UHGV virus genome: UHGV-0285842
Direction: 5' to 3' (one strand)
DNA: 34,986 bases
From: a virus
A program made the translations under genes and the position numbers. Positions 1,798 through 20,631 of this stretch are shown piece after piece. Below the pieces are notes generated by a model. It did no database searches. It was not told the DNA's origin and worked only from the letters and a program-made list of their open reading frames with translations. Every line of letters starts with the position of its first letter. Within the stretch, counting starts at the first letter, position 1.

Positions 1798-1833
1798 GCC
1801 CCTATCGTTATAATACGCGGTAGGGGCGTTTTT
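1798..1833 (+). terminator. rho-independent terminator after secreted-protein gene
   Basis: Stem GCCCCTA (1798-1804) / TAGGGGC (1821-1827) followed by GTTTTT. Confidence 0.55.
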
Positions 1834-1846
1834 GTTTGGAAATGGT

Positions 1847-3526
1847 ATGAAAACTAAACTGTATTCGTATATTCGCTTCTCGTCTATGCGTCAGAATGAT
1901 GGTTCGAGTTATGAACGACAAATCAGGATGGCGAGAGAGGTTGCGGCAAAGTATGACCTTGAACTGGTAAATGATTATCAGGATCTGGGTGTATCTGCGT
2001 TTAAGGGTGCTAACTCCAAAACAGGGGCGCTATCTCGTTTCCTTGATGCAATTGGTAGATCCGTTCCTGTTGGTAGCTGGCTATTCATTGAAAACTTGGA
2101 CCGCTTATCCCGTGCCGATATTGTCAGTGCGCAGGAGTTATTCCTTTCAATCATCCGTAGGGGGATAACCATTGTTACTGGCATGGATAACAAGATCTAC
2201 TCGCTGGATACTGTTACCGCTAACCCGATGGACCTGATGTTCTCCATCCTTTTATTCATCCGTGGTAATGAGGAAAGCCAGACTAAGCGCAATCGTACTA
2301 ACTCAAGCGCACTGATTAAGATTAAAGCCCATCAAGAAAATCCCCAGAATCCGGCAGTGGCAATCGAGGAAGTTGGAAAGAATATGTGGTGGACGGATAC
2401 CACTTCCGGTTATGTGTTGCCTCATCCTACATACTTCCCTGTTGTTCAGGAGATTGTGGAATTACGGAAGAATGGACGTTCAACCGCCGAAATACTGGAT
2501 CACCTTAACGAGACATATACACCGCCACCAGCGGTTAGTAATAAGAAGCATTCAAAATGGTCACGGGCAATGGTTGAAAGGTTGTTCCATACCCGCGCTT
2601 TGATTGGTATCAAGGAAGTCTCTGTAGATGGTGTTAACTATGAGTTAAAGGATTATTACCCTCGTGTTATTGATGATGCTACGTTCTATCACCTTAAGAA
2701 AAATATTGGTGCTAGAGCATGGAACTTTGGAGACAAGGAAGAAGTTAAACCGATCCCCCTGCTTAGTGGTATTGGCCTATTGAAATGTGATCATTGCGGT
2801 TGCGCTATGGTTAAAGTGAAGGGAACGAACAAACGTTCTGACCAGTATCGTTATACATGTGATGCGACCCGTTCACGTAGACTTGATTGCGAGCATCCAA
2901 ACTGGAGTTTTCGAGGTGATCAATTAGAGAAAGCTGTATTGCAATTGCTGGCTGATAAAATCTGGATTGCTGAGGACAAGGCTAATCCGGTTCCGGCGTT
3001 GAAAGTACAGGTTGATGAAATATCACGCAAGATTGATAACCTGATTGCCCTTTCTGCTATGACAGGAGCAACGAAGGAGCTAGCCGATCAGATTACTACC
3101 CTCAATAGCGAGCGTGAAACACTCTACAATCAGATCAAGATGGCAGAAGAGGAAATGTATTCTGTGGACTCTCAAGGCTGGGAGAAGCTCGCAGAATTTG
3201 ATTTAGAAGATGTTTATAACGAGGAACGACTAAAGGTCCGGTTTAAGATTAAGCAAGCTCTAAAGCGGATCGGGTGTAGCAGGATTGACAGAAATAAAAA
3301 CTTGTTTGTGCTGGAATACATCGATGGAAAGACCCAGAGAGTTGTAATAGAAAATTCAAGAGGAACGAGGAAAGGCCGGATATTCATTGATTTGAAAACT
3401 ATCAATGATAGGCAGATTCTGGAGAGTAACGGGCTTGTTTTGCATCCATGTTTAGACATGCTGACAGATAAGAACTGGAAACCAGAAGAGGAAATACCAG
3501 GTCCATTACAGGAATTTGGAATTTAA
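1847..3526 (+). CDS. large serine recombinase (integrase-type)
   Basis: N-terminal resolvase-type catalytic domain (YIRFSSMRQ, DLGVSAF, LDRLSR), central recombinase domain, Cys-rich zinc-ribbon (CDHCGCAMV...YTCDA...LDCEH) and C-terminal coiled coil. ATG 1847 preferred over the track's TTG at 1832. Confidence 0.85.
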   Translation: MKTKLYSYIRFSSMRQNDGSSYERQIRMAREVAAKYDLELVNDYQDLGVSAFKGANSKTGALSRFLDAIGRSVPVGSWLFIENLDRLSRADIVSAQELFLSIIRRGITIVTGMDNKIYSLDTVTANPMDLMFSILLFIRGNEESQTKRNRTNSSALIKIKAHQENPQNPAVAIEEVGKNMWWTDTTSGYVLPHPTYFPVVQEIVELRKNGRSTAEILDHLNETYTPPPAVSNKKHSKWSRAMVERLFHTRALIGIKEVSVDGVNYELKDYYPRVIDDATFYHLKKNIGARAWNFGDKEEVKPIPLLSGIGLLKCDHCGCAMVKVKGTNKRSDQYRYTCDATRSRRLDCEHPNWSFRGDQLEKAVLQLLADKIWIAEDKANPVPALKVQVDEISRKIDNLIALSAMTGATKELADQITTLNSERETLYNQIKMAEEEMYSVDSQGWEKLAEFDLEDVYNEERLKVRFKIKQALKRIGCSRIDRNKNLFVLEYIDGKTQRVVIENSRGTRKGRIFIDLKTINDRQILESNGLVLHPCLDMLTDKNWKPEEEIPGPLQEFGI

Positions 3527-4633: not shown

Positions 4634-5074
4634 TTATTGAGAAAAATTTGTTGTAATGGTTGAAGACCACGGGCATGAGTAGTAACCACGACCGCCACCG
4701 ATCAAACAAATGGTCGGACGGAAACCAGTAAGATCACAAAATGAATCAGTGTCATGCGCAGGAGAACGATGCTCTGCTTCGTCAGAGAAAATGTTTGCCA
4801 CCGGAGATTCCACTTTAACTTCCGGTGCTTCTTCAACATCTGACTTAACTTCTTCAACCACTGGTTCAACTTCTGGAGATTCTTCTTTTGTTTCTTCAAT
4901 GACGATCTCAGGTTCTTTCATTGCTTCAACCAGAGACGGATCAACTTCGTCGAATACCACTTTATCATCTGCGGTATATTTGTCTATAATGAAAAAATGG
5001 TCAGAAATATAGCTAACGTCGCCAGCATATTCTAACAAAAAAGCGCCCACAAGAGGCGCTTTTGTTTTATCCAT
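4634..5074 (-). CDS. hypothetical acidic Glu/Val/Pro-rich protein; start uncertain
   Basis: ORF in a low-complexity region. Candidate ATG at 5074 overlaps the stop of the M15 gene and would place the 5043-5059 hairpin inside the coding sequence; alternative internal starts exist. Confidence 0.3.
   Translation of the reverse strand: MDKTKAPLVGAFLLEYAGDVSYISDHFFIIDKYTADDKVVFDEVDPSLVEAMKEPEIVIEETKEESPEVEPVVEEVKSDVEEAPEVKVESPVANIFSDEAEHRSPAHDTDSFCDLTGFRPTICLIGGGRGYYSCPWSSTITTNFSQ
5037..5063. terminator. bidirectional hairpin at the end of the late/lysis operon
   Basis: Stem GCGCC (5043-5047) / GGCGC (5055-5059), A-run upstream and T-run downstream; immediately 3' of the M15 gene stop (5067). 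Confidence 0.5.
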
Positions 5075-5420
5075 TCCACCGTGATTTTTTTGATCTGGAA
5101 TCAATATGCGTAAAGGTTTTATATTTTCCTAAGCCGTATTGAGTAGGATATTTCCCATCAAGATAAGCATGAACAATATCAGGCGAGACACCCTTGATAA
5201 CAATGTCAGCCGCACGGCCTCGAACATGATAGCTATTGGTTGCACCGCCAACATTCTTGTTATGAGTCGGGCAACGGTTGCCACTGTTAATAATCACTGG
5301 TTTACCGAAGTGCTCTCGTACATCCTCAAGAATCACCAGTAATTCAGCGTCGATTGTATCATAATCACATTTTCCGCATTTACATTTAAATTCCTTGCGA
5401 GAAAAATGCTTACTTAACAT
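5067..5420 (-). CDS. peptidase M15-family zinc peptidoglycan peptidase (candidate endolysin)
   Basis: FSRKEFKCKCGKCDY...SGNRCPTHNKNVGGATNSYHVRGRAADI...THID matches the M15A/YcbK-type zinc-binding pattern (H, D, H). ATG 5420 with GGGGG Shine-Dalgarno. Confidence 0.7.
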   Translation of the reverse strand: MLSKHFSRKEFKCKCGKCDYDTIDAELLVILEDVREHFGKPVIINSGNRCPTHNKNVGGATNSYHVRGRAADIVIKGVSPDIVHAYLDGKYPTQYGLGKYKTFTHIDSRSKKSRWNG

Positions 5421-7074: not shown

Positions 7075-10000
7075 TTAAGAAACAGAAATACCAGTAGCGG
7101 CTTTCTTAGTTACCATTACCGTTAGATCGCTGATATATGCACTTGGGTTATAGTTGTTAACGCCCTTACAGTAAACTTCAAAAGTCATTGTTACTGCCCC
7201 GTGTCCGGCTGGCATGTCAATAACTCCACTGTACATACAGCCAGAAGTTGCAGTGCGATCATATAGAACACCACCATTTTTCTTAACGATTAGTCGGCAA
7301 GTATCCCAATGATCGCTACTTTCGCCACGACGAACAGACCCGTTATGATGAATCGCTGGAATCACTATTTGGCGATCGAATGGATGATCATCTTCGACCC
7401 TTACAGTGATTGCACCATCAGGCCAGTTTGGTTGGCGATGTGGGAAACTCCTACCAACCACTTTCACGAAGTCACCACGCACCTGATTAGCATCAAGCAT
7501 ACCCAAAATGCGGCAACTTGAATTAATCGTTACGTTGTTCATTTCGCCGGAATCAGCCACCAAATGACCACGAATATTAGCGTGTCTAAAATGACAAGTG
7601 CCATCTTTGCCGATATACCATCCATCGTTACCATTCCAGTTATAAGACTGGATATAGTTACCAATTTTAGCATTATCGATAGAGCCATCAATGATATGAC
7701 CTGTTCCGATCTGTGCGTGTTGGATGTGAGCGCCGTTAATCTGGGCTGTGCCGATCTTAGCCGTGGTGATACTAGCATCACTAATCTGGGCTGTGCCAAT
7801 TGCAGCATTACGAATCATCGCATTATCAAGATAAACTTTGTTATCTTCGATGCCAAACGGACAAACTTCTGATCCGTCTTGTGGAGCTACCGCGATTTTA
7901 TCAGCCGTAAAGATGATTCTTGTCGGTTCTGCCGGATCATTGGTTGCGCTCATATGAATACCAGCCACGCGACCATCTGCATTAACTGCCAGATTATATT
8001 TGCTGTTAATGGTTCCCTTCAAAGCATCGATTTTTACATCTGCTTCCTGATTCACACCAGCAATCTTGCCATCCATTTCTACCCGAACTTGATCAATCTT
8101 ACTTGCGCTTGCTGCCTCACTGGTAGCAATTGCTTGTTTCAGGGTAGTAGCGGATGCGCTAACTTCTTTGGTGATATCGCCTTTCAGTTCAGCTTTAACC
8201 TGATCAATCTTAGTTGCGCTGGCTTGCTCACTGGTAGCAATCAGACTCTTGAGAGTATCGGCTGAGGCTTGGACCGTCTGCCCTGTCTCGGTAGTAATCT
8301 GTTTATGCATTGCATCAATCTTAGCATCGGCATTAGCGCCAGCTTGAGCAATAGCATCCGCGATGGTTTCATCTAAGCGATCTTGTAAACCAATCAGGTC
8401 TTCCAGTGCTTCTTTGTCCTGATCGTCCCAGCTAATGGTAGATTTCATTTGCATGAAATACGGTTCAGACCAAACAGCATCATCCATGCCGAAAATATCA
8501 TAGTGAGCACCACGGATATAATAATCACCGTCAGCCAAATCAAAGGAAGTATGACTAACGCTATTGGTAGTCACTGCCCTTGCATCGGAGAAAGTATTAT
8601 CGGTTGCATACTGGATGATTGACCCTGCATAGTCATGTTCTACGTCATCCGCCCAGCTAACAAACGCAGTATTAAAGCCACCACGCGCACTAAAACCTTT
8701 CATCGGCTTATGTTGTGGGTTGATAGCCACTAAACGCGCTGGGGCGCTCTCTGAGTTGTTATAGCCCTTGACTGATACTTCTACCGTCAATTCACGGGAA
8801 AGGCCGTTAAACTGGTTCATATCAAGCGTATAAGTCCATGATTCAGGATCGCGGGTACGGTACTGAATAGACTTACCAGCCTTGTTAGTTACCTTGATAA
8901 TGTATGCTTCAAACAGGTCACTAAACTTGTTAGCTTCACCGTTGATCATCACATCTAATTGTTGCTGATTTTCCCATTCGATAATCAGATCATTGCCTTC
9001 GAAAGTACCAGGCGTGCTACCCTGATTTTTGATTCGAATAACCGGAGTCGGCAATTCATAGGTAACAGTAGGATTCTGGTTAACCAGTTCCACCCATTCG
9101 GAACGAGCAATAATACCGAAAGCACAAACGCGGTAATCGTAGGAGCGATCTTTTGCCAGTGCATTGATATTGAAAATTTGCTGTGAAGTCTGCCCCAGCT
9201 TAATCCAGTTAGGCGATCCACTTACACGGTAATCAATCTGGAAACCGTAGCGGTTAAAATCTTCCGGTGCATCCCATGTCAAAGTAACGTTTTTACCGTG
9301 GATTGTCTCACCAGTTGCCTTAATTCTGAAATTAGTAGGCTTCTGTACTGTCATTGAATCCGGTAAACCAGTAGGTCTATTGTCTGGAGTCGCCGCATAG
9401 TTCAGGTCAGTATAAACCTGAGAATTATATTCTGTAGCGGTGATAGTCATCATCCCAGCAATACCAGAATCAATCGAGCGATCAATTGCAGTAATACGCC
9501 ATAAGGAATTATTCAGCTTCAATTCATCATATGTTACGCTGATAACGTCCCAAACTTCGGCAGTGAATGCGTCAGTAGTCATAAAGCTGATAACCTGAGT
9601 GATACGAGATTTATTTCGTTCTACACTCGCTAGTTTATCAATCTGGGCTTTAGACTTAACAAAACGATATTCAATATCTTTAGCGATAATTCGACCATCT
9701 TGACGAATAGTAGCATCGTTTTCAGCATCAGCCGGATAACGTAGCATTTGCTCTGAATAGTCGATTGATGGTTCTTGATACATCGCGTTAATGGTATTGA
9801 AATAACCGTTAGTGCCACCTGTTTTCAGTGATACCTTACCCATCATGATATTGTCTTCATTGAAGGTATGCTTAACAATATCAGGAGCATCCAGTTTCAG
9901 CGTAATACGTCCAAAGGATTCGAACATCACCCCGCCGAAAGTCTGCATAAGGCTAGTTAAGTTCTCTTTAAAGCTGGCGTTCGGATCACATGCACCGTTG

Positions 10001-10821
10001 GAATGTAAATCCATCTGGCGTACTTGTTTACGCACTTTCAGGAATGAATCAACGTTAATATTTTCAATCGGTACACTAAGACCATACTTTGTATTTGTCA
10101 GATAATGGAAAATCTGGTCCACGCCGTTAGTGCTAGCCTCAATAGCATTGGTTTCAAGGTTACGAATCTTTAAGCCCATAACATCGACCGCTACCTGGCT
10201 ATTAGGCTGGAGAATATCAACACCAGCAGCCAAAGATTTGTCATCACGACGTAAAACAATACACATGGTCGCAATGCCGTTACCCTGATACCGATCATCC
10301 CAATCAGCGCCCAAATGATGTTTAGCTAAATCCAATGCAGTGTTAGGATTTTTACCCGTGCGAAACTCGACTTCTAAAACTTTGCGGTATTCGTCTTTAA
10401 TGTTTCCTTTATCGAGAATGCCATCACGAATTGTCATATTCTGGCTAATGAGAACGTTTTTATTATCGATGTGCAGTGCTTTAAAGTGATCGATCTCACC
10501 TTCGGCAATAGCAAAAATTTGTACCAGCTTGTTATTTTCACGCTGTGAAATTGCCTTGTAAACGCAGATTGCACCCGTGCGGGTAGTACCAAAAAGAACG
10601 GGTAATACTGTTTTCGGATCGTTTGATGTTCCTAGTGTCACCGCATTATCTGGGCTTTGTACTTTCGGTGTTTTTGGTGCGCCTACAGTGGAAGCGATCA
10701 AGGTCATTGCACCAGCAGCCATCCCGATAGCGACTGCGGTCATAACAGAAAATGTTGCGGCTGCCGCCATCCCCGCCGAAGCACCAGCGATCACCGCGCC
10801 TACTAATATTTCAAATCCCAT
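7075..10821 (-). CDS. central tail fibre / host-specificity protein, lambda gpJ-like (1248 aa)
   Basis: N-proximal block LVQIFAIAEGEIDHFKALHIDNKNVL resembles the lambda J N-terminus; fibronectin-III-like segment; C-terminal 120 aa (DDHPFDRQIV...MPAGHG...MVTKKAATGISVS) parallels the lambda J receptor-binding end as I recall it. Start overlaps the stop of the upstream gene (TAATG). Confidence 0.85.
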   Translation of the reverse strand: MGFEILVGAVIAGASAGMAAAATFSVMTAVAIGMAAGAMTLIASTVGAPKTPKVQSPDNAVTLGTSNDPKTVLPVLFGTTRTGAICVYKAISQRENNKLVQIFAIAEGEIDHFKALHIDNKNVLISQNMTIRDGILDKGNIKDEYRKVLEVEFRTGKNPNTALDLAKHHLGADWDDRYQGNGIATMCIVLRRDDKSLAAGVDILQPNSQVAVDVMGLKIRNLETNAIEASTNGVDQIFHYLTNTKYGLSVPIENINVDSFLKVRKQVRQMDLHSNGACDPNASFKENLTSLMQTFGGVMFESFGRITLKLDAPDIVKHTFNEDNIMMGKVSLKTGGTNGYFNTINAMYQEPSIDYSEQMLRYPADAENDATIRQDGRIIAKDIEYRFVKSKAQIDKLASVERNKSRITQVISFMTTDAFTAEVWDVISVTYDELKLNNSLWRITAIDRSIDSGIAGMMTITATEYNSQVYTDLNYAATPDNRPTGLPDSMTVQKPTNFRIKATGETIHGKNVTLTWDAPEDFNRYGFQIDYRVSGSPNWIKLGQTSQQIFNINALAKDRSYDYRVCAFGIIARSEWVELVNQNPTVTYELPTPVIRIKNQGSTPGTFEGNDLIIEWENQQQLDVMINGEANKFSDLFEAYIIKVTNKAGKSIQYRTRDPESWTYTLDMNQFNGLSRELTVEVSVKGYNNSESAPARLVAINPQHKPMKGFSARGGFNTAFVSWADDVEHDYAGSIIQYATDNTFSDARAVTTNSVSHTSFDLADGDYYIRGAHYDIFGMDDAVWSEPYFMQMKSTISWDDQDKEALEDLIGLQDRLDETIADAIAQAGANADAKIDAMHKQITTETGQTVQASADTLKSLIATSEQASATKIDQVKAELKGDITKEVSASATTLKQAIATSEAASASKIDQVRVEMDGKIAGVNQEADVKIDALKGTINSKYNLAVNADGRVAGIHMSATNDPAEPTRIIFTADKIAVAPQDGSEVCPFGIEDNKVYLDNAMIRNAAIGTAQISDASITTAKIGTAQINGAHIQHAQIGTGHIIDGSIDNAKIGNYIQSYNWNGNDGWYIGKDGTCHFRHANIRGHLVADSGEMNNVTINSSCRILGMLDANQVRGDFVKVVGRSFPHRQPNWPDGAITVRVEDDHPFDRQIVIPAIHHNGSVRRGESSDHWDTCRLIVKKNGGVLYDRTATSGCMYSGVIDMPAGHGAVTMTFEVYCKGVNNYNPSAYISDLTVMVTKKAATGISVS
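8088..8258. repeat. imperfect ~60-bp direct repeat (period ~111 bp) inside the J-like gene
   Basis: 8088-8148 and 8199-8258 are ~80% identical (both contain GATCAATCTTA...CTCACTGGTAGCAAT), encoding repeated ATSE-AS-KIDQV peptide units. Confidence 0.6.
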
Positions 10822-11240
10822 TATTCACCCCCGAATCTATAAACTTGTTCATAGTCAATGTCTGAAACAGGAATGGTCATCCAGATACCATCTTCTTCAA
10901 CGAGGCCATAACCGGAATAATGAGGAACTACGGAATAATATTTGCGGTTTCCTAATTTGTGGGCTGTGACCAGTAAGTCGCCGTCCTGTAAATCATCAGT
11001 GACTAATTTGAAATGTTTCTTAATTGGTTGAAGGATATTTGTGTATCCGCTTAATTCTTTGCAGATTTTCAAGCCTTCTTCTTTAGTTGAATATTTTTTA
11101 TAAAGAGAATTATATAGGTCAGTACCAGCGAGAATATCGATGATCTTACATGCAATTATATTGCAATCATTCTCGCCTTGAACGAACTCCTGACCTATTA
11201 AAGAATTGATGTAATCGGTGATAAGCCTAGTTTTTAGCAT
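10821..11240 (-). CDS. tail assembly protein, K-like position, with NlpC/P60-like Cys motif
   Basis: ATG 11240 with GGAGG Shine-Dalgarno (track ORF start at 11396 lies inside the upstream gene). GENDCNIIACKIID and downstream His residues suggest a small cysteine-peptidase fold; position between L-like and J-like genes. Confidence 0.45.
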   Translation of the reverse strand: MLKTRLITDYINSLIGQEFVQGENDCNIIACKIIDILAGTDLYNSLYKKYSTKEEGLKICKELSGYTNILQPIKKHFKLVTDDLQDGDLLVTAHKLGNRKYYSVVPHYSGYGLVEEDGIWMTIPVSDIDYEQVYRFGGE

Positions 11241-11286
11241 GTTGAATACCTCCATGCTGTTATTTACTAGGCTTAGGGAGAAGGGA

Positions 11287-11940
11287 TTATTTCTTCGATG
11301 AATGCCACTTGCTTTCCGATTGCCAGCGCCCGGTCCTTGAGAAGAATAGATCATTCTCGTTTCCGGCATAGGATCGGTGGATACCATCGGAGGCATGACT
11401 ACGAGCGTTTTTATCTAGAACTTCCCAGATACTATTAAGCTGAAATTCTGATTCGTTTTTACACTCATCATCTTCATGTTCGATGTTAATCCCGATGGAA
11501 TCGACTACCCCACGGAAAACAGGGTAAGTGGTTTCAACCTTGCCCGTGTTAGGGTTCAGGAACACCATTTCGATTTTCACATCTGATTTATCGAATTGCT
11601 TGTTTCGAATCAGGGTAATGTATTCCTCGCGAACGTTAGAAACGGTTACGTTAATCCCGTTGTTGTTAATCTCCTTCTCTTCGGTATTCGATGAGATTTG
11701 AAGAAAATCACCCGTTGCGAGATACGTAAATCCGTTATAGTCCAAATCGAAATACCCATCAGTAAGCCGTAGAACGTCCCCTGACGCTGTTATCACTTCG
11801 ATAATGTGAAACATCGATCCAGTGGAAAAAAGCTGCGGTAGCGTCAATCTAGTCACGTTCTGACCTGTCTGGTCGTTGTAGACCTCGATGAAGTCCAGAT
11901 TAGTGCATAGTTTGCTGAATGATTCCTGAATAGTTGCCAT
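11287..11940 (-). CDS. minor tail protein, L-like position (217 aa)
   Basis: ATG 11940 overlaps the stop of the upstream gene (TAATG); synteny with lambda L. Confidence 0.5.
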   Translation of the reverse strand: MATIQESFSKLCTNLDFIEVYNDQTGQNVTRLTLPQLFSTGSMFHIIEVITASGDVLRLTDGYFDLDYNGFTYLATGDFLQISSNTEEKEINNNGINVTVSNVREEYITLIRNKQFDKSDVKIEMVFLNPNTGKVETTYPVFRGVVDSIGINIEHEDDECKNESEFQLNSIWEVLDKNARSHASDGIHRSYAGNENDLFFSRTGRWQSESKWHSSKK

Positions 11941-12500
11941 TATACATTCTCCACTAATTCGAATTTCATCTTGCCAATCTGGGCGATCTTCCAATCGATG
12001 TTTTCAGTTTTGAGAACAAATTCACCTTCTACGTTCTGATACTTGATCACCTCACCCGCCAGGACGTTCTGACGCAAGTTAGGGAAGAGTTTCATTTCAC
12101 CACCTGATTTCACGTCTTCGGTGATCGTGTAGATTTTCTTGTGGTTCTCAAACTGGATGACAGTTCCCGCTTTCAGTGTTCCGGTGAAGTTGGAGATTCT
12201 CACCTTACGCCCACCGCGAGCAGTACCAGCAGCAGCCGTTACCATCTGGCGTACATCACCTGTATATTTTGAAAAGTAAGACAGTGGCACACTAAAAGGA
12301 CGACCAAAAAGGTGACGTGCTACAAATTCTTTTACTTCGTTAATATCCTGAGCCATGTAATTCGCGGTAAATTCTGCTTCGTAAAAATGGATGCCAGTAA
12401 AGCGACGCTGGAACTTACCGGAGATAGATTGCGCCTTGAAGAAAGGCTGTTTTGATTTAAGAGTAAAATCTGTGATTTTAATATTCTTGGATTTGAACAT
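11940..12500 (-). CDS. minor tail protein, M-like position (186 aa)
   Basis: ATG 12500 with GGGGG Shine-Dalgarno that lies in the 3' arm of the 12504-12547 hairpin; follows the tape measure gene. Confidence 0.45.
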   Translation of the reverse strand: MFKSKNIKITDFTLKSKQPFFKAQSISGKFQRRFTGIHFYEAEFTANYMAQDINEVKEFVARHLFGRPFSVPLSYFSKYTGDVRQMVTAAAGTARGGRKVRISNFTGTLKAGTVIQFENHKKIYTITEDVKSGGEMKLFPNLRQNVLAGEVIKYQNVEGEFVLKTENIDWKIAQIGKMKFELVENV

Positions 12501-12550: not shown

Positions 12551-14980
12551 TTACATCTTACGACGCTGAACGTCTTCTATCGCCTGAGCAACAAACTTAG
12601 CGTGACGTTTGATAGCATCCATGACCATCTTGTCTGAGCTATTAACGTTGCCGTTAATGTTCAAAGGCGCATTTACTTCAATCGGCTGAGAGTTACCACC
12701 ACCTGATTTTTGAGCAGCAAGGAAGTCTTTCAAATCACCGTTAGTACGCTGATCAACTACTCGTTCACCCTTATCAAGCAACCATGTACCCTCACGAGGG
12801 ATGTTATCAATACCATCATGAGCCATACCGCTAACGTTAGTAGACTTGATGTTTGCGATGTTCCCCATGTTCTGAGAAACAGCCAATGCAGCAGCCGCGA
12901 TTTTTTGACCTGTGGTGACGTTGGTCGGATCGTTCCATGCATCGGTAGCAGCCGTCCACATGTTCACCGTCGCTTGTCCAATGGAGAATGCTTTATGAGC
13001 ATTGAAAGCCATCTGCATAGCTTTAGTGTTTTCCTGCCCGAAGAGAGTCATTGCAGCAGCAAAACCGCCGTACATATCATCGGCTATTGACTGGCGAGCA
13101 TCAGCATATTTCTTCTCAATTGCAGCCATTCGTTTTTGATGGTTTTCATTGAGTTTTTCTAATGCTTCCATCCGTTTAGCCGGATCATTAATACCGTCAA
13201 TCTTGAGTTTATCGGTCTTATAATCTTGTTCAGCATCCGATTTCTCTTTATCGATTGCATTAAATTTAGCAAACGGATTATTTGAGTCTTGATAATCATA
13301 ACCACTAGTTAATTGATTGGTTTTATAACCATCCATTCCCTGTAAAGAATTTTCAATCTGAGAATAGTTTTGCTCGGTATCGTTCACACGACGCATATAT
13401 TCTTCGTAGGAGATAGCTTTACCATCAAGTAACCGTTTATGGCTTTCTAGCTCGTTGTCCCTGATTTGTTGCAATTGTGTTAAAGCATTCAGAGCATCAA
13501 TCGGATCAGCACCCAACATCATTTTATAAACGTTTTCAGTATTCTGATCGATTAGCGCCTGGCGTTTCGCGGCTGCGTCTTCCTGAGAGATTAAGCCCAG
13601 AGCTAACGCGTCGTTCACATCTTTTAAGCTGTTTTGCAACTGGCTATTTTGAGAAGTGATAGACGCTGCAACTTGCCCTTGCAATTTAACATCAAGTGCA
13701 TTCAGTCGCTTGATTGCATCCTCGCGTGCTTTCTGTGCTTTTTCTGCGGCTTCCTTAGCCTTTTTAGCTGCCTCTTCCGCTTTCTTGCGTGCTTCTTCTT
13801 CGGCTTTCTTCTCATTACCAGACTTACCCAATGATTCTGGTCTTACTGGTTTATTTGGTATAGTCAAATCACGGTTAGGATCTGCCTTGCGGGTTAGATG
13901 TTCCCCGTTATCGACAACAATCAGAGAGCCATTTTTCTTATAAGAATCACCAAAACGTTTCTTAAATCCTTCAACATCAAAGCCAGCAGTACGAGGATCG
14001 ACACCAGCACCACGGATCGCGGCCTTTTCCCAATCTGCCAGATTATTCCAACGCTTTTCTTTATTGTACTTGTCAATAATTTTTTGAGCGTCTTTATGGT
14101 TGGCGTTAAGAATACCGCCAGTTGCGGTCTTGCCTTCTTTATTCAGTCGATCTAATGCCCTGAATAGAGAACTCTTTTCCCAATCAATATTAAACCAGTC
14201 AAATAACCAGTTTAAACTATCAACCAGCGGACCAGAAATGGTCATACCGACACCTTTCAGGTTATTTTCCAGCTTATTGATATTTTGAGAAAATTTATCA
14301 TATTTTTTAGCGTTTTCTTCGGTGACGTTAACAGATTGATTCTGAATAGCGATCATCGCCTCTTGAGCAGTATTATATTTCTCAAGCTGGCTGGTCATAT
14401 GGCTTGAATCACTGGCTAAAGATTCCATCATGAACTTGATTTCAGCCATTGATTTTCCGGCTTTCTTCATGTCATAGAACACTTGGATCGCCGCTTTCAT
14501 ACCACCTTGCGGATCAGTCATGAAGTGAGCATAGTTTTCTAACTTAAGGCCAACCGATTCTAAGTCATCGGCAATACCGCCACCGTTAGCCCATGCATCA
14601 CCCATTTTATCTAAGGTGTCTTTGTTGATATCACCAAATTTTTCAACTGTTAGGCCAGTGCCAGCAAATTCCTTTTCTAGTCTTTGAAGGGATTCAATCG
14701 AGAGTCCGGTCGCCTTAGATACTTCTGAATACTGTTTAACGTATTCCGCACCAGCTTTAGCGGCTGCAACCACTGCGGTCGCAACTAAGCCGATACCACC
14801 AGCAGCTAAACCAGCAGAGCCAGCAATACCACGAAGAGATCCAGTCAGACCAGACAAGCCACCACCAAAATCAATATTACTTGCCTTTTCAGACAAATCA
14901 TCGAGCAGGTCAGCGGCTTCACTAGTGCTTCTCTTTAGCCCTTTATTATCCCCTTCTATTGTTACTATATGTTTTGTCAT
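12551..14980 (-). CDS. tail tape measure protein (809 aa)
   Basis: Size and position after the G/T-like chaperones; N-terminal hydrophobic Gly/Ala segment, long coiled-coil Lys/Glu/Ala region. ATG 14980 with AAGGGGTAA. Confidence 0.8.
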   Translation of the reverse strand: MTKHIVTIEGDNKGLKRSTSEAADLLDDLSEKASNIDFGGGLSGLTGSLRGIAGSAGLAAGGIGLVATAVVAAAKAGAEYVKQYSEVSKATGLSIESLQRLEKEFAGTGLTVEKFGDINKDTLDKMGDAWANGGGIADDLESVGLKLENYAHFMTDPQGGMKAAIQVFYDMKKAGKSMAEIKFMMESLASDSSHMTSQLEKYNTAQEAMIAIQNQSVNVTEENAKKYDKFSQNINKLENNLKGVGMTISGPLVDSLNWLFDWFNIDWEKSSLFRALDRLNKEGKTATGGILNANHKDAQKIIDKYNKEKRWNNLADWEKAAIRGAGVDPRTAGFDVEGFKKRFGDSYKKNGSLIVVDNGEHLTRKADPNRDLTIPNKPVRPESLGKSGNEKKAEEEARKKAEEAAKKAKEAAEKAQKAREDAIKRLNALDVKLQGQVAASITSQNSQLQNSLKDVNDALALGLISQEDAAAKRQALIDQNTENVYKMMLGADPIDALNALTQLQQIRDNELESHKRLLDGKAISYEEYMRRVNDTEQNYSQIENSLQGMDGYKTNQLTSGYDYQDSNNPFAKFNAIDKEKSDAEQDYKTDKLKIDGINDPAKRMEALEKLNENHQKRMAAIEKKYADARQSIADDMYGGFAAAMTLFGQENTKAMQMAFNAHKAFSIGQATVNMWTAATDAWNDPTNVTTGQKIAAAALAVSQNMGNIANIKSTNVSGMAHDGIDNIPREGTWLLDKGERVVDQRTNGDLKDFLAAQKSGGGNSQPIEVNAPLNINGNVNSSDKMVMDAIKRHAKFVAQAIEDVQRRKM

Positions 14981-14991
14981 AAATTACCCCT

Positions 14992-15333
14992 TTAACCGCT
15001 TCTGAGTTTCTCAAGCAAAGATGAATCAAACATGTTCAGCATTGTCGCTTTACGTTCTTCTTCTTTCTTGCGTACAAGTTCTTCCTGTTCTTCTTTAGTT
15101 TTAAAGAGTTTTTCTTCTCTAATTAATTGGAATTGGCTAGGCTTGAGTTTCTTTGCAGTTTCACGAGTCATTCCTTGCGACGTCATATACATGGAATACT
15201 GCAACATCGCATTCTGCATATCATGAAACGCGGGGCTTTGTGGTTCTAAGTAGGTGTCGAAAATGTATAATTTCCAAAATAGAGTGATTGGCATATTATC
15301 CATTTCATCTTTACTAAGCCCCGATCTCATCAT
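14992..15333 (-). CDS. tail assembly chaperone, T-like downstream frame (113 aa)
   Basis: ORF in the -1 frame relative to the upstream G-like gene, no Shine-Dalgarno of its own, directly upstream of the tape measure gene. Confidence 0.5.
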   Translation of the reverse strand: MMRSGLSKDEMDNMPITLFWKLYIFDTYLEPQSPAFHDMQNAMLQYSMYMTSQGMTRETAKKLKPSQFQLIREEKLFKTKEEQEELVRKKEEERKATMLNMFDSSLLEKLRSG

Positions 15334-15362: not shown

Positions 15363-15671
15363 TTACTTTACCTCGTTTTCAATTACCGCCGGATCTTGCA
15401 TCAATGAGGCTTGAGCAACCAAACCGATTAATTCACTGCGGACGTTAGTATACAGTGCCTTAACTTGTTCAATAGATTCAAATACTGGTTTACCGTCTTC
15501 ATCTTCAATACAACGAAGAATCGAACGTTCGTCACGGTCTTCTTTATCAGTATTAAAAACATGTTCGTTAAATTCTTTTACTGACATAGGGCGAGCATAG
15601 AAAGTGAATCCACCGATGGTCAGAGATTCGCGTTTCGGAGAGAGTGCGGCTAACATTTCGTTAATATTCAT
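15363..15671 (-). CDS. tail assembly chaperone, G-like (102 aa)
   Basis: Small acidic protein between tail tube and tape measure genes; AGAGGAAACAAGA before ATG 15671. Confidence 0.55.
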   Translation of the reverse strand: MNINEMLAALSPKRESLTIGGFTFYARPMSVKEFNEHVFNTDKEDRDERSILRCIEDEDGKPVFESIEQVKALYTNVRSELIGLVAQASLMQDPAVIENEVK

Positions 15672-15753: not shown

Positions 15754-16224
15754 TTAGACTTTCTGGAAAACAGCTTGTTTAACCGGAGCACCATCTACTA
15801 CAAAGGTGAAGGTACGGCCTACTACAGCATCCTCACCACCGGTCATGGTAGTTTTAGACAGGAAGCCGTTATAAGCGATATGTACACCAGATTTTTTCGT
15901 AGCATCGATGTAGTAAGCAATTTTAAGCTGTACGCGCTTACCGTCTTCGGTTGCTTTAATCAGTTTTTCGTGTACTTCGTTACCAGGCATGTAGTTGATC
16001 GAAAGTTCGATATCCGGTACAGACATACGACCAACCAGCTTACGGTTATACGGACCACCGAAGTTAGGAACATCGATAGTAGAACGTTCTACACCAGTTT
16101 CCGGGAAAGCCGCACATTCTGGAATTTCCAGATAGCTTTCACTGTCAAGATCGGTGTTAGTTACTTCTTCATGCAGAAACAGACCAACGAGGCCACCAGA
16201 AAAAATATCAAATTTAGTAGTCAT
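15754..16224 (-). CDS. major tail tube protein (156 aa)
   Basis: Position immediately upstream of the chaperone pair, size and beta-rich composition; AAGGA Shine-Dalgarno; followed by a strong terminator as is common for abundant structural genes. Confidence 0.55.
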   Translation of the reverse strand: MTTKFDIFSGGLVGLFLHEEVTNTDLDSESYLEIPECAAFPETGVERSTIDVPNFGGPYNRKLVGRMSVPDIELSINYMPGNEVHEKLIKATEDGKRVQLKIAYYIDATKKSGVHIAYNGFLSKTTMTGGEDAVVGRTFTFVVDGAPVKQAVFQKV

Positions 16225-17223: not shown

Positions 17224-20200
17224 TTACCCTAATTTAGCTTCAATTGCAGCAAGACGTTCACGAAGAAGTTTATTTTCTTCGCTCATTTCTTGGACCGCTT
17301 TAATTAAAAGCGCGTTCACTGCGGAGTTTGAAATTGTTAAAATTTCTTCTGGGTTATCAAGACCACCAATTTTTGCGGTTTTAACAGCTTCCGGTAATAC
17401 CTCTTGTAAATCCTGTGCGATAATACCAATCTCATGACCTATAACTTCTCGGTCATTAAGAGATTTAACTTTATCGTAGGTTTTAACTTTGAGTTTATTT
17501 ACCTTATCCACCGCATTTTCTTCGTAATCTTCAACATTAATTTTCAGACGACCATCGGAACGAATATAAACATCGTTAAAGTTACCATTACCAGGAGAAT
17601 AGAAAGTACCATCATGATGGAACTCGAATACAGCTTGAGGATGACCAGCCGCTGGCGATGCCTCCGCAGATCCAACACGAATAATAGCTTGCCCCCAATT
17701 TTGAGGAACACGACGCATACCAAAATCGACGGCAGTTGTATACCCTTGATTGGTGATTAAACTTCTTCCTTTAATAATTGGATAATAGCTATCTGGTCCA
17801 ACATAGCCATGATCGACGAATATTGGAGCTTCTAATCCCCATTGATCGCCCCAACCTCCAGATTGGCTAGCAGTCCAACGTTCACCATGAACATAGAATC
17901 GAACGTTATTGACATGAGTCATTTCGACACCTTTTGGACTTAGCGCGATATCACCCGCGTTTGTAATATTGATAGCAGCATTAGTAGCATAGCTATAGAA
18001 CGCTAATCCATTATCAGCACCACCTTTACCGATATACCAGTTGTTATTATCAGCACAAGTACCCAGCAAATATATAGACGAATCACCCGTTTCGGCATTC
18101 ATGACGATTGCGTCAGAACCACGATTAACTTTAAGTTTCCCGAAGAAGGTGTTTTTAATGGTATTATCACCCAATCGTTCAAATTCTGCTAAAAATCCTT
18201 TTGAGTCACGAAGACTTAAAACGTTATTTCGACCTGTATTGCTTGCACCCCAATGGACGAGTTCCATATAGTCCATAGATTGACGAGAACCAGCTTTAAA
18301 GAACAGGTTGTCTTCGAGACGAGTGCTACCATCAATTCCAAGATGCAAACAACGAGCAGTTTCAGTGCCACCTAAATATAATCCACCGTCAGCAAAATTA
18401 TAGCTGAATGGTCTACGAGTATTCCACGGTCCAAATGAATCACCGAGATCTGTGGTAAGAATATGGAAGCCAACGCCATCATTTCTAAAAATTAAGCCAT
18501 AATTGCCACCTTTAACAGCCAAACGAGCATTTTCAGATAATGCAACTTCGCTATTCATTACAATTTTCTGGCCTTTACCGCCAGTAATATGCAATTCACC
18601 ATCTTCAATCAGGTTTATAGAGTTTTGACCGTTATCGTTCCACCAAATAAAATCTTTGGTCGTCAAATCACCAAAACCAAACCAACCATTACGAACATCT
18701 TGACCAGTGCGATAATCCATAAAATTAAAATGGCTTGATTCGTTTGGTCCTCGACGAATATCAATACCAGCATTACCAGTACCACCATCCAATGTTAATT
18801 TCTTGATATGTAACCCGGATGTTGCTGTCAGCAATAATTCCTGATTTGTATCTTCGTATCCAGTAGCAAGACGATATGCGTTATCATCAACTGTCTCATG
18901 CCAGATTGTAGCTGGTGCACAACTACGGAAGCGACGCAACATCTTTTTAGCATTTGTCGGTTGTTCGTTTAAATGCTCAATATCATATTGGCCTTGATGA
19001 TTGCCAGCAAAATTTAACGTCCCACGGTTGCTAAAGTTATTGAACGATGAAATGTTAAGAGCATCAAAAATTTCGTCTGCAACAGGTTTTTCACCACCCA
19101 GATATTCAGGAGTATCCAACAGGTTTAAAGAAACACCACCGGAAGAAACTTGATATTCTGCTAAAACAAATCCTGTATGTGCACCGTAGTAAGCGTAAAG
19201 ATCGTAATTGTCGCCATCGGTTGGAATAGCGCAAAAATGTTGTTCATAATGCCAAATAGTATAATACGCATTGAATACAACACCTTTCGGGCTATTGTTG
19301 CCGCATCGAATCACCAATTCGATAATATTGGCTTGTCCATTATGTCCTACGTTATAACCGTTACCACCAACCAAACGGATCTTAGCCGTGCGACCGTGTT
19401 GTTGTGGCATTGTCAAAGTGCCTAGTTTAAACCAACCACCCTCGATACCAAAATTAAGCGTCTTCTGGAACAGTCGGTCAATTTCTGCTTTCGAATATGC
19501 GCCAATTTCAGCCGGAGTAGGTTTATCGCCTTCATGATACATGCGGTGAGAATATGACAAATTACCTAATTCATCATAGCCGTATGTTCTTACAGTAGCA
19601 TGTGGATTAGACCCATAAGTGAACTCGAAGCCACGAGCATGATTAACACCAGATGGATGCGGAACATGCAAGATCATTGCAATATGACCCGCCAGGTCAT
19701 TCATGCGGAATGCACCAAAGTAATCAAGATTACGCGCATTTGGATCATCAAAATAGTTTGCGGTCTTAGACAGCAAATAACCATCAGTATAAGTGTTTAC
19801 GTGTTTTTTGATGTACTTGCCATCAGCAGATCCATCGGCTGCATCAATACGGCTTTCTAAACGTGCCAGTTCAGAATCAGTGTAAGACTTGTTATTGTCA
19901 ACTTTGCTATGAATTGCTGTATTTTTGGCTTCAACATCACGGGTTAATGCTGCGACGTTATCCGCTGCCTCTTGCTTATTGGCTGCAATCACACCAGTAA
20001 GGTTATTGTAGGTGTCAGTTAACTGATTTTCCGCATAGACTTTATTTGCTGCGATAGTGCGGTCAGTTTCTGCCTTAATCAAATCAACCTTGTCATTGAT
20101 TGCTTTGTCATTGCTTGCGATGGTTGCATCGGTGCGGGATTTAATATCATCAACTTTTTTATTGATGCGGGTGTCCAGTTCCTGAGTTGCTACAGCAGCC

Positions 20201-20631
20201 GCATTTTTATTAGCGTTGATGGTATCCGACAATTCAGCTTTAACACCAGCAAGGTCGGAAGCAGCTTTATTTTTATTGGCCTCGATTGTCGCGTCGGTTT
20301 CGCGTTTAATTACATCAACTTTATTGTTAATTTCTGCGTGATTTGCTGCGATGGTTGCATCAGTAGTTTGTTTAATTTCATCTACTTTAGCGTGAATATT
20401 GCGGTCATTTACTGCAATTGTGCTATCTAGTTCTTGTTTGTTAGCATCAACTTTAGATTCTAGTGCCGCGTGAGTTTCAGGAGAAACAGAGATTTGAACT
20501 ACTTCATGATCTCGGTCTTTGGTAAAAATAACATGGTCTTTAAGGTTGATTGCTACCTCACCGACCTGTAATTGTTCCGGCGTTGGTTTTTTGCCAGAAA
20601 CATTAGTTCGTTTAAATTGGATTGATTGCAT
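17224..20631 (-). CDS. side tail fibre (1135 aa) with C-terminal peptidase S74-type intramolecular chaperone domain
   Basis: N-terminal repeated KVDxIKxxTDATIxAN units, central beta-helix-like Gly/Asn-rich region, C-terminal ~110 aa (SDGRLKINVEDY...LLRERLAAIEAKLG) resembling autoproteolytic chaperone domains of phage fibres and endosialidases. GAGGTGA Shine-Dalgarno before ATG 20631. Confidence 0.8.
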   Translation of the reverse strand: MQSIQFKRTNVSGKKPTPEQLQVGEVAINLKDHVIFTKDRDHEVVQISVSPETHAALESKVDANKQELDSTIAVNDRNIHAKVDEIKQTTDATIAANHAEINNKVDVIKRETDATIEANKNKAASDLAGVKAELSDTINANKNAAAVATQELDTRINKKVDDIKSRTDATIASNDKAINDKVDLIKAETDRTIAANKVYAENQLTDTYNNLTGVIAANKQEAADNVAALTRDVEAKNTAIHSKVDNNKSYTDSELARLESRIDAADGSADGKYIKKHVNTYTDGYLLSKTANYFDDPNARNLDYFGAFRMNDLAGHIAMILHVPHPSGVNHARGFEFTYGSNPHATVRTYGYDELGNLSYSHRMYHEGDKPTPAEIGAYSKAEIDRLFQKTLNFGIEGGWFKLGTLTMPQQHGRTAKIRLVGGNGYNVGHNGQANIIELVIRCGNNSPKGVVFNAYYTIWHYEQHFCAIPTDGDNYDLYAYYGAHTGFVLAEYQVSSGGVSLNLLDTPEYLGGEKPVADEIFDALNISSFNNFSNRGTLNFAGNHQGQYDIEHLNEQPTNAKKMLRRFRSCAPATIWHETVDDNAYRLATGYEDTNQELLLTATSGLHIKKLTLDGGTGNAGIDIRRGPNESSHFNFMDYRTGQDVRNGWFGFGDLTTKDFIWWNDNGQNSINLIEDGELHITGGKGQKIVMNSEVALSENARLAVKGGNYGLIFRNDGVGFHILTTDLGDSFGPWNTRRPFSYNFADGGLYLGGTETARCLHLGIDGSTRLEDNLFFKAGSRQSMDYMELVHWGASNTGRNNVLSLRDSKGFLAEFERLGDNTIKNTFFGKLKVNRGSDAIVMNAETGDSSIYLLGTCADNNNWYIGKGGADNGLAFYSYATNAAINITNAGDIALSPKGVEMTHVNNVRFYVHGERWTASQSGGWGDQWGLEAPIFVDHGYVGPDSYYPIIKGRSLITNQGYTTAVDFGMRRVPQNWGQAIIRVGSAEASPAAGHPQAVFEFHHDGTFYSPGNGNFNDVYIRSDGRLKINVEDYEENAVDKVNKLKVKTYDKVKSLNDREVIGHEIGIIAQDLQEVLPEAVKTAKIGGLDNPEEILTISNSAVNALLIKAVQEMSEENKLLRERLAAIEAKLG
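20040..20420. repeat. imperfect tandem repeats (~48 bp units) in the fibre N-terminal shaft
   Basis: Recurring GCGATGGTTGCATC...TTTAAT-TCATC-ACTTT blocks, at least four copies, encoding the repeated KVDxIK-TDATI peptide motif. Confidence 0.5.

Follow-up and report, generated by a model that had tools for sequence, protein, structure and literature searches.

The virus genome UHGV-0285842, analysed here over a stretch of 34,986 nucleotides (the window), encodes on the minus strand a J-like central tail-tip or baseplate hub protein of 1248 amino acids (7075..10821; a complete gene, stop codon counted), whose first residues, MGFEILVGAVIAGASAGMAAAATFSVMTAVAIGMAAGAMTLIASTVGAPK..., agree with those quoted from the open reading frame listing in a first-pass annotation. 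That annotation had described a hydrophobic, Ala/Gly-rich N-terminal extension of about 90 residues preceding the region alignable to the start of the lambda gpJ chain, a short K-like gene upstream and no I-like gene, and it proposed either an I-J fusion or an added membrane-interacting leader. The question raised by this locus is what the N-terminus corresponds to in better-known tails, and whether it was joined to J or was, conversely, separated from J in lambda.

The N-terminal extension

The Ala/Gly-rich hydrophobic segment comprises residues 1-47 (10681..10821, minus strand), as delimited by 19-residue Kyte-Doolittle means, composition and comparison with gpI. Across the 1248 residues these means exceed 1.6 at window centres 10-39 only (residues ~1-48), with values of 1.4-1.9 over residues 1-47; Ala and Gly make up 44% of residues 1-50, vs 16% of the remainder. 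The first 49 residues carry a single charge, E4, no Lys or Arg being found before residue 50, and two GxxxG motifs are present (G13, G33). GC content of the corresponding DNA (10681..10821) is 55%, compared with 42% in the window. The AlphaFold2 (AF2) monomer of J has pLDDT <50 over residues 1-62 and gives no usable model there.

Alignment to gpJ starts at residue 96: in an hhalign comparison of alignment A1 with gpJ, residues 21-56 of the lambda protein were paired with J 96-127 (LVQIFAIAEGEIDHFKALHIDNKNV; 10441..10536, minus strand), with E=6.4e-4 and a low probability. Since gpJ 21-56 aligns to this stretch, the extension relative to lambda gpJ amounts to ~95 amino acids. The extension reported earlier is confirmed, together with the strong hydrophobicity of its first ~50 residues, but the hydrophobic character ends at about residue 47 and residues 48-95 consist of a polar linker followed by beta-strands.

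Homology to the C-terminal module of lambda gpI

The polar, Pro/Lys-containing linker APKTPKVQSPDNAVTLGTSNDPKT (residues 48-71; 10609..10680, minus strand) aligns to the plug region of gpI (about residues 156-190), the plug itself having been assigned to gpI residues 159-175 (PMC11101478). The strand motif that follows, LPVLFGTTRTGAICVYKAI (LPVLFG...R.G; residues 72-95; 10537..10608, minus strand), aligns with the beta-strands at the gpI C-terminus as well as with T5 pb3 residues 262-285. Several searches converge on this relationship: BLASTP pairs J 48-107 with gpI 156-223 (E=5e-6), hhalign pairs J 50-104 with gpI 160-220 (probability 95.3%, E=2.4e-8), and a search of PDB sequences with a profile of 22 N-termini retrieves gpI 117-222 (E=1.2e-6, profile positions 7-104) and T5 pb3 262-315 (E=1.5e-8), the latter contiguous over J residues 72-125. 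The profile was required, the gpI match being marginal when the single J sequence was searched against the PDB (E=0.066). Across the 22 diverse homologues G78 of the strand motif is invariant, while Y/F77 and G83 are nearly so; in the AF2 model strands 79-83 and 85-91 are predicted with pLDDT about 90 and are joined to the hub domain.

The hydrophobic segment is a different case. Its likeness to H1/H2 of gpI is one of composition, length and position, since the hhalign alignment to gpI begins at residue ~48; HMMER extends the alignment to gpI 117-158, where the similarity is compositional. By comparison with gpI, residues 1-47 would form a two-helix hairpin equivalent to H1/H2, which are predicted transmembrane helices in lambda (PMC11101478).

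The order of elements is the same as in gpI (PDB 8IYK, 8K35, 8XCG and 9E7M, tail tip assembly or 'insertion' protein I), where an Ala/Gly-rich hydrophobic two-helix segment is followed by a PK..P..Q plug/linker and by LPVLYG..RVG strands; the gpI plug/strand module (APK..TP.IQ ... LPVLYGEMRVG) thus has a counterpart in the J N-terminus, and in both systems the module lies directly ahead of a gpJ-type N-terminus. The differences are equally clear: the module forms the beginning of the J chain, whereas gpI is a separate protein of 223 amino acids, and the ubiquitin-like domain of gpI (PF06805, residues 14-97) is missing. Indeed, PF06805 (Lambda_tail_I) does not match the N-terminal part of J at a threshold as loose as E<=10, while the same model finds gpI 14-97 with 1.1e-28; this model covers the ubiquitin-like N-domain of gpI only, there is no Pfam model for the C-terminal module, and Pfam scans of 130-residue N-terminal fragments returned noise only. 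Likewise, tblastn of lambda gpI against the window matches gpI 121-222 to J residues 25-106 only (E=1e-4), with no match anywhere in the window for gpI residues 1-100. Judged by these alignments, J residues ~1-95 share ancestry with the gpI C-terminal module (H1/H2, plug and beta-strands), and what is present of gpI is this module only (about residues 100-220), the ubiquitin-like N-domain being absent.

A separate I gene is also absent, as the first-pass annotation had noticed: the first codon of J overlaps the stop of the gene upstream and no open reading frame lies between them, an arrangement also found in L002, L003, L004 and L005.

The hub, the fibre and the receptor-binding end

Downstream of the extension, J resembles known siphophage tip proteins. 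Pfam detects Ig_GpJ_C (1.6e-34) and Phage_Tail_Tip (4.4e-17), with weak matches to Phage-tail_3 and fn3. The C-terminal receptor-binding domain (residues 1073-1248; 7078..7605, minus strand) is 41% identical to gpJ 952-1131 (BLASTP E=2e-34), and is found by tblastn as well. An AF2 model of residues 1-520 has a pLDDT of 76 and is confident over residues 66-520 as one hub fold, which includes strands 79-91; used as a Foldseek query it matches T5/DT57C pb3 best (about 1e-26; pb3 4e-26), then gpJ (7e-17) and RcGTA g15 (5e-16), and also tip proteins from phages Chi, JBD30 and T1. According to this model, J carries the hub-domain fold of lambda J and of the siphophage baseplate hub (HD II-IV).

The neighbouring tail genes

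The gene in the K position (10821..11255, minus strand) codes for a DUF6950 protein of about 144 amino acids (Pfam DUF6950, 9.7e-12); its true start is probably the Met at 11255 or 11240 and not that at 11396, homologues being 138-148 amino acids long. Pfam found DUF6950 alone and no JAB/MPN domain in this protein, and by sequence it is not significantly similar to gpK (hhalign, 1.3% probability) or to PDB sequences. In the AF2 model (pLDDT 82) the top Foldseek matches are NlpC/P60 peptidases, Spr/MepS, an assignment made by fold comparison only and at modest E-values (about 8e-3 to 2e-2, TM about 0.5-0.56); residues C31 and H99 are invariant. The earlier description of the upstream gene as K-like is thus borne out by its position, its predicted NlpC/P60 fold and the invariant Cys and His, and the modelled product would be a bare NlpC/P60 fold lacking the JAB half that characterizes lambda gpK. 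Versions of K with the NlpC/P60 domain alone have been described (PMC1779556).

Further upstream, 11287..11940 (minus strand) codes for a gpL-like hub protein with a baseplate hub N-terminal attachment domain of the RcGTA g13/phiJL001 gp84 type (PF09931, 1e-5); the same protein matches phrog_2048 ('tail protein', 8e-28) and is labelled 'DUF2163 domain-containing' by PGAP. Upstream of it in turn lie the genes of a distal tail protein, Dit (11940..12500, minus strand; phrog_1302 'distal tail protein', 1.3e-16, with a weak match to the B-domain of T5 pb9), and of a tape measure protein of 809 amino acids (12551..14980, minus strand), recognized by size, position and coiled-coil content and syntenic in DCP80, L003 and L004. 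By analogy with the contact between the gpH C-terminus and gpI in lambda (PMC10721106, PMC12617516), the plug is expected to have the C-terminal end of this tape measure protein as its partner.

Comparison with megatrons and T5 pb3

A close parallel for the arrangement is offered by the megatron proteins of the gene transfer agent RcGTA (g15; PDB 6TBA/6TEH) and of roseophage R4C (gp16; 8GTC), in which a hydrophobic N-terminal segment of ~45 residues forms part, in cis, of the hub or central protein. The helices of this segment close the channel as an iris, and penetration of the outer membrane has been proposed for them (PMC7296036, PMC10276861); descriptions of this in-cis 'iris/penetration domain' appeared in 2020 and 2023 (PMC7296036, PMC10276861). 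A profile search of the PDB did not find RcGTA g15 at E<=1. With N-termini taken from PDB sequences, hhalign of A1 against g15 1-140 aligned g15 65-140 to J 66-123 (81.7%, E=1.1e-5), and the match to the R4C megatron was weak (14.8% probability, E=1.8e-3). In g15 the hydrophobic residues 1-46 directly precede the aligned region, with the same layout at the R4C N-terminus, and the motifs that follow in g15 (WGRMRVAG...CEGEI) are also shared; J residues 1-47 sit where the iris/penetration domain sits. Gene order is shared too, from a hub protein with a PF09931 attachment domain to a small peptidase and a large tip protein. Differently from the megatrons, the C-terminal two thirds of J carry FN3, Phage_Tail_Tip and Ig_GpJ_C domains (Pfam), apparently in place of adhesin-like, peripheral and fibre-binding domains; moreover, the host is E. 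coli and not an alphaproteobacterium, and the peptidase is here a DUF6950 protein.

The best fold match, pb3 of T5/DT57C (7ZHJ, 8HQZ), has in common with J the strand pair PVVYG...AEGEIDGF, contiguous in one chain. It differs in that it also contains a gpL-like HD I and, ahead of the motif (262-315), a globular plug domain, and in that T5 pb3 has no N-terminal hydrophobic hairpin. The set formed by gpL, gpI and the gpJ N-terminus has already been equated with pb3 (PMC10721106).

Occurrence among relatives

In related phages the extension is not a separate gene: it is part of J in DCP80, in the Salmonella prophage L004 and in Vibrio phage 2.058.O. In DCP80 (42% identity) this N-terminus is just as hydrophobic; that of Vibrio phage 2.058.O is shorter, with one hydrophobic stretch. 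Matching synteny is found in DCP80, Vibrio phage 2.058.O, the Salmonella prophage, Providencia phage PSTCR4 and Pseudomonas phage Lebethron. When 1.84 billion representatives were searched with HMMER, 26 hits were obtained; in almost every case the match lay at residues ~4-130 of a protein 650-2330 amino acids long. Long J-like proteins with the same N-terminus account for nearly all database relatives. The in-cis layout also occurs in proteins at 20-35% identity, among marine and alphaproteobacterial-type sequences.

A word-indexed protein search, queried with the J sequence alone and also with the profile, returned only short proteins; considered as candidate stand-alone I genes, these proved to be pieces of long J-like proteins truncated by contig ends or frameshifts, and such short matches were left out of the evidence on a separate gene. 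Megablast of the tail-tip region gave no match in phage and plasmid collections; the E. coli genome collection was matched, and about 1% of the complete genomes of E. coli carry the prophage.

The finding is therefore real but ordinary, the in-cis layout being already known from gene transfer agents and from many other phages.

A proposed role in plugging and penetration

The interpretation that we consider likely is that J residues ~1-95 are the in-cis equivalent of both the gpI C-terminal module and the RcGTA/R4C iris/penetration domain, with a plug/penetration role and with the unsplit state as the probable ancestral one. The module would comprise a helical hydrophobic hairpin of ~47 residues, a Pro/Lys-rich plug/linker and beta-strands of the hub sheet that run into the gpJ-like N-terminus. 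By analogy with the structures of lambda, T5 and RcGTA/R4C, three J N-termini would lie in the virion within the tail-tip cone, touching the tape measure C-terminus and keeping the channel shut; binding of the receptor by the C-terminal domain would open the hub, and the hairpins, once freed, may insert into the outer membrane and provide a path for the tape measure protein and the DNA. In lambda, binding to LamB frees the gpI plug, and in the LamB-bound open state H1/H2 exit the cone and aim toward the membrane (PMC11101478). Membrane insertion is, for lambda gpI and RcGTA g15 as well, still a hypothesis (PMC11101478, PMC7296036, PMC12617516).

The N-terminus might instead be a lumenal plug or assembly element only, whose helices bundle together, and with the tape measure C-terminus as well, shutting the channel and nucleating tip assembly, and never enter a membrane. 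Such a role, which we regard as unlikely, agrees with the resolved gpI trimer of lambda, a tripod on which the gpH coiled coil rests and which obstructs the exit, with the iris observed in RcGTA/R4C, and with the moderate hydrophobicity of an Ala/Gly-rich segment; insertion has not been directly observed, and in situ maps of Ur-lambda did not resolve gpI. It fits less well with the position of the gpI helices out of the cone and toward the membrane when LamB is bound, and with the conservation, in very divergent relatives, of two successive, nearly chargeless GxxxG segments of ~20 residues; that this character is kept despite sequence drift fits selection for a membrane-like nature over a specific protein interface.

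Joined or split

The proposal of an I-J fusion or of an added leader captured the domain arrangement and the homology to gpI; what is probably wrong is the direction implied by both words, because pb3 and g15 have the strand motifs contiguous within a single chain, and in g15 and R4C the hydrophobic N-terminus belongs to the tip protein itself. Lambda, in this comparison, looks like the split state. A recent, lineage-specific fusion, in which an ancestral separate I lost its ubiquitin-like domain and joined J, has precedents: TAPI-TAPJ fusions were reported in some prophages by Iyer, Burroughs and Aravind in 2006 (PMC1779556), and these share with the present protein an I-type C-terminal domain joined to J. 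Unlike it, they belong to a family in which TAPI is defined by the ubiquitin-like domain, absent here. A separate I gene is, in addition, very common in cultured phages, among which 1284 records match the gpI C-terminal module (40 of 40 sampled annotated ones being named tail assembly or tail protein). Against a recent fusion stand the in-cis layout of proteins as distant as 20-35% identity, of RcGTA g15 and, for the strand part, of T5 pb3; neither a ubiquitin-like remnant nor an intergenic scar is seen, and the hub and peptidase genes next to J are RcGTA-like and not lambda-like. A fusion of this kind thus seems quite improbable. Conversely, the unsplit state is probably common or ancestral, with lambda-type phages having split off gpI and gained the ubiquitin-like domain and the JAB domain of gpK; this direction is read from distribution.

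The segment in the producing cell and the start of translation

The hydrophobic segment might also act in the producing cell, as a secretion signal or an inner-membrane anchor that is removed or retained in the membrane and does not become part of the virion. It is indeed N-terminal and hydrophobic, and in the distant relatives P0034 and P0036 a signal-peptide-like leader such as MKIRNIILFLSALFFTGSIFA precedes the same module; however, inspection of the J sequence found none of the hallmarks of secretion signals. A positively charged n-region is missing, the sole charge being E4, as is a lipobox Cys, the first Cys being C86, and the hydrophobic span of ~47 residues is twice the length of a signal peptide. 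Moreover, tail proteins are assembled in the cytoplasm, and both the megatron N-terminus and the homologous portion of gpI can be seen in virions; such a signal or anchor is accordingly very hard to credit.

The gene start is sound. The ATG (10819-10821) shares one base with the TAA stop of the upstream gene (TAATG), a Shine-Dalgarno-like element read from the sequence, GGGGGTGA, lies 5' of it (10825..10832, minus strand), and PGAP annotates in E. coli ES2 an identical CDS of 3747 nt with the same start. The Salmonella homologue (L004) starts at the same codon, with GGAGGTGA at the Shine-Dalgarno position, and over codons 1-47 it differs from J by 20 synonymous and 6 non-synonymous changes. 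These codon differences, the Shine-Dalgarno element, the stop-start overlap and the concordant PGAP call indicate that the hydrophobic part is translated. An antisense open reading frame (10577-10969, plus strand) overlaps the start region.

Initiation downstream, with the hydrophobic frame untranslated, had been named as the outcome that would overturn the first-pass annotation; apart from the general possibility of a mis-annotated start and the antisense frame across the region, nothing speaks for it, and it has a negligible chance, given purifying selection on codons 1-47, a coupled start kept in homologues down to 42% identity, and in-frame alternatives past the hydrophobic part (GTG-61 and ATG-129 only) that have no Shine-Dalgarno site, the second of which would also remove the conserved hub strands of J.

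Implications for siphophage tail tips

One J protein aligns to the H1/H2-plug module of gpI, to contiguous strands of pb3 and to the region of g15 that follows the iris/penetration domain, and this alignment to three systems supports the existence of one device, variously split or joined among phages; two structural literatures are thereby joined at the level of sequence. For annotation, an I gene is not to be expected in tails of this type, and a hydrophobic J N-terminus should not be trimmed. With an E. coli host, the prophage is tractable for testing the entry of the hairpin into the outer membrane.

More tentatively, and with somewhat less than even confidence, it can be suggested that the membrane-active plug module of gpI functions simply as an extension at the N-terminus of the tip protein, needing neither a ubiquitin-like domain nor a JAB peptidase, the hairpin being ancestral and the Ubl-JAB pair a later acquisition. 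If this were true, the lambda Ubl-JAB pair would be an accessory added later, such as a removable chaperone for the solubility or assembly of the freed module, and the Ala/Gly 'glycine-zipper' hairpin would be an ancestral outer-membrane opener common to lambda-like phages, megatron-type phages and gene transfer agents.

The tail module and its temperate element

The window is a temperate element: the genes for a large serine recombinase (1832-3526, plus strand; Resolvase, Recombinase and Zn_ribbon_recom domains) and for a D-Ala-D-Ala carboxypeptidase-type endolysin (5067-5420, minus strand; Peptidase_M15) are both consistent with an integrated temperate phage. A siphophage tail module is found on the minus strand and encodes a tail tube protein (15754-16224), a tape measure protein (12551-14980), a distal tail protein, Dit (11940-12500), a hub protein with a "baseplate hub N-terminal attachment domain" (PF09931; 11287-11940), a DUF6950 protein of ~144 aa (10821-11255) and a J-like protein of 1248 aa (7075-10821). 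The tail tube gene is separated from the tape measure gene by two tail-assembly chaperone ORFs with weak matches to Phage_TAC_13 and Phage_tail_T (15363-15671 and 14992-15333, minus strand), probably a G/T-type pair; in E. coli ES2 the first of them (locus L005, 11565-11873) is labelled "cytochrome" by PGAP, which looks like a mis-annotation. A 1135-aa fibre protein (17224-20631, minus strand) contains trimerisation domains of the T4 gp34/gp37 type and has an S74 intramolecular chaperone at its C-terminus. Its gene lies upstream of those for the tail tube and neighbouring proteins; such a location is unusual for a side fibre, as it comes before the tail tube gene instead of following J. Of 5426 complete E. 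coli genomes, 56 carry the tail-tip region on the chromosome (megablast, at least 80% identity), and Salmonella has close relatives.

The DUF6950 protein is modelled with an NlpC/P60-type papain-like fold, in which C31 and H99 are invariant; Foldseek ranks Spr/MepS first (E about 8e-3 to 2e-2, TM about 0.5-0.56). The protein has no JAB domain; thus, it can be called "K-like" solely with respect to the NlpC/P60 half of gpK. Direct sequence comparison with gpK is not significant. NlpC/P60-only versions of K have been described (Iyer et al. 2006, PMC1779556). The mechanically predicted ORF (10821-11396, minus strand) encodes 191 aa from ATG 11396 and shares ~110 nt with the hub gene, and the PGAP call in E. 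coli ES2 is also long (534 nt); since homologues in other phages and prophages have 138-148 aa, translation probably begins at a Met further in, at 11255 or 11240.

The hydrophobic N-terminus of J

The first-pass annotation had reported a hydrophobic, Ala/Gly-rich extension of ~90 aa at the N-terminus of J. The extension exists, with the N-terminal sequence quoted there, and comprises ~95 residues, but just ~47 of them are hydrophobic, residues 48-95 forming a polar linker and a beta-strand. The Kyte-Doolittle average over 19 residues exceeds 1.6 at residues ~1-47 and nowhere else in J, Ala and Gly account for 44% of residues 1-50 versus 16% elsewhere, and a single charged residue and two GxxxG motifs precede K50. 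An equally hydrophobic N-terminus is found in the homologue from Escherichia phage DCP80 (42% identity), and a shorter one in that of Vibrio phage 2.058.O.

The start codon of J is well supported. It is preceded by a Shine-Dalgarno site, GGGGGTGA, and shares one base with the upstream stop (TAATG); the PGAP CDS in E. coli ES2 is identical, and the Salmonella homologue has the same start, with 20 synonymous versus 6 non-synonymous differences in codons 1-47. Past the hydrophobic part, the only in-frame starts, GTG-61 and ATG-129, are both devoid of a Shine-Dalgarno site, and initiation at ATG-129 would remove conserved, confidently modelled hub strands. The sequence features and the substitution pattern contradict a wrongly called start as well as a signal peptide. 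Some distant J-like proteins, the metagenomic relatives P0034 and P0036, have an additional signal-peptide-like leader (MKIRNIILFLSALFFTGSIFA...) before the same hydrophobic module; this may be a true variant or result from an incorrect start call. An antisense ORF of 130 aa (10577-10969, plus strand) runs across the start of J and the end of DUF6950; the simplest explanation for it is not a gene but a reverse complement poor in stops, opposite GCN/GGN-rich codons (local GC 55% versus 42% for the window).

Relationship to lambda gpI, T5 pb3 and megatron proteins

No separate I gene is present in the window, as the first-pass annotation had stated: J abuts the DUF6950 gene, and lambda gpI matches by tblastn only J residues 25-106. 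The ubiquitin-like domain of gpI is absent from the window, being found neither by this search nor with Pfam Lambda_tail_I, which covers gpI 14-97 only and corresponds to that domain. From residue ~100, gpI contains a Gly/Ala-rich hydrophobic stretch, followed by "APKARTPRIQTTDN..." and "NVLPVLYGEMRVGSRVV", and the same order of elements is found in the J N-terminus. Homology to gpI is supported by three comparisons: J 48-107 matches gpI 156-223 by BLASTP (E=5e-6), J 50-104 aligns with gpI 160-220 by hhalign (95.3% probability, E=2.4e-8), and a profile of 22 diverse J N-termini (A1) retrieves gpI 117-222 among PDB sequences (E=1.2e-6). At the domain level, the proposal of an I-J fusion or membrane-interacting leader is essentially correct, but the gpI C-terminal module alone is present, and the architecture is known and widespread rather than a peculiarity.

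The same profile matches T5 pb3 262-315 across J 72-125 (E=1.5e-8), lambda gpJ 21-56 aligns weakly with J 96-127, and AF2 places strands 79-91 and 98-118 in one domain (pLDDT about 90). These alignments indicate that in J and T5 pb3 the LPVLFG...R.G strands and the AIAEGEID strands after them make up a single contiguous element, whereas in lambda it is split between the gpI end and the gpJ start. In lambda, gpL, gpI and gpJ's N-terminal portion have jointly been considered the counterpart of T5 pb3 (PMC10721106).

The "megatron" proteins of RcGTA (g15) and roseophage R4C carry in cis an iris/penetration domain (N-terminal residues 1-46), which shuts the channel and for which an outer-membrane pore has been proposed; their genes follow those for the hub and the peptidase, in that order (PMC7296036, PMC10276861). 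Using N-termini from PDB sequences, g15 65-140 aligns with J 66-123 (hhalign, 81.7%, E=1.1e-5), so that the hydrophobic segment of J occupies the position of the iris/penetration domain; the match of the J N-terminal profile to the R4C megatron is weak.

Distribution

When 1.84 billion representative proteins were searched by HMMER with J 1-130, 26 matched at E<=1e-3, nearly all at residues ~4-130 of proteins of 650-2330 aa. In their common layout, a hydrophobic stretch (~20-60 residues) precedes a linker, which is followed by [ILV]P[IV][IV]YG and then EGEI. Among the cultured examples are Escherichia phage DCP80, Vibrio phages, Pseudomonas phage Lebethron and Providencia phage PSTCR4, all with the gene order Dit, hub, small protein, J. 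Short proteins retrieved by word-indexed searches are fragments of such long J-like proteins and not I genes. The gpI C-terminal module is also present in 1284 phage records, and in 40 of 40 sampled annotated records, from lambda-, T1- and related phages, the match is annotated as a tail assembly or tail protein gene; thus, both arrangements are common.

Among cultured phages, DCP80 (PQ671644.1; locus L002, 4100-9700) has the tail-tip module most closely related to that of the window (42% identity). This 141 kb record is classified as Straboviridae/Gaprivervirus, a T4-like myovirus group, yet it has a siphophage-type TMP, Dit, hub, DUF6950 and J module; its classification or assembly may be wrong. 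The Dit (L002 4143-4703) and DUF6950 (L002 5499-5915) genes are not annotated in it.

Fold, proposed mechanism and evolution

The AF2 model of J 1-520 (mean pLDDT 76) predicts a hub fold, with Foldseek matches to T5/DT57C pb3 (E about 1e-26), lambda gpJ (7e-17) and RcGTA g15 (5e-16); FN3 repeats and a tail-tip fibre domain are also present. The last ~180 residues (7078-7605, minus strand) share 41% identity with the gpJ receptor-binding domain (E=2e-34), a likeness that suggests a porin-type outer-membrane receptor. J is thus a mosaic, its N-terminal hub being nearer to T5 pb3 and GTA-type proteins and its C-terminus gpJ-like.

In lambda, gpI is an "insertion" or plug protein, whose residues from 101 onward comprise two predicted transmembrane helices (H1, H2), a plug (159-175) and strands threading gpJ gaps; its trimer props the tape measure protein's C-terminal coiled coil, and upon LamB binding the plug loosens and H1/H2 exit the cone in the direction of the outer membrane (PMC11101478, PMC10721106, PMC12617516). 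In the most likely mechanism for J, by analogy, three N-termini would lie inside the tip cone, plugging it and gripping the tape measure protein C-terminus; receptor binding by the C-terminal domain would rearrange the hub, shift the strands and loosen the plug, and the Ala/Gly hairpins would then be released and enter the outer membrane. The principal rival explanation assigns to the N-terminus purely a lumenal plug and assembly role, with no such insertion.

TAPI was described as a ubiquitin-like domain, a glycine-rich region and a C-terminal domain; some prophages have a TAPI-TAPJ fusion, and the JAB domain of K was predicted to cleave off the ubiquitin-like domain (Iyer et al. 2006, PMC1779556). 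Since the ubiquitin-like and JAB domains are absent together and the in-cis form is broadly distributed, lambda is suggested to represent a derived, split state, on the basis of distribution and not of a tree. The value of the finding is modest: J provides a sequence-level bridge linking gpI, pb3 and the megatron iris domain, and the prophage is a possible test system in E. coli.
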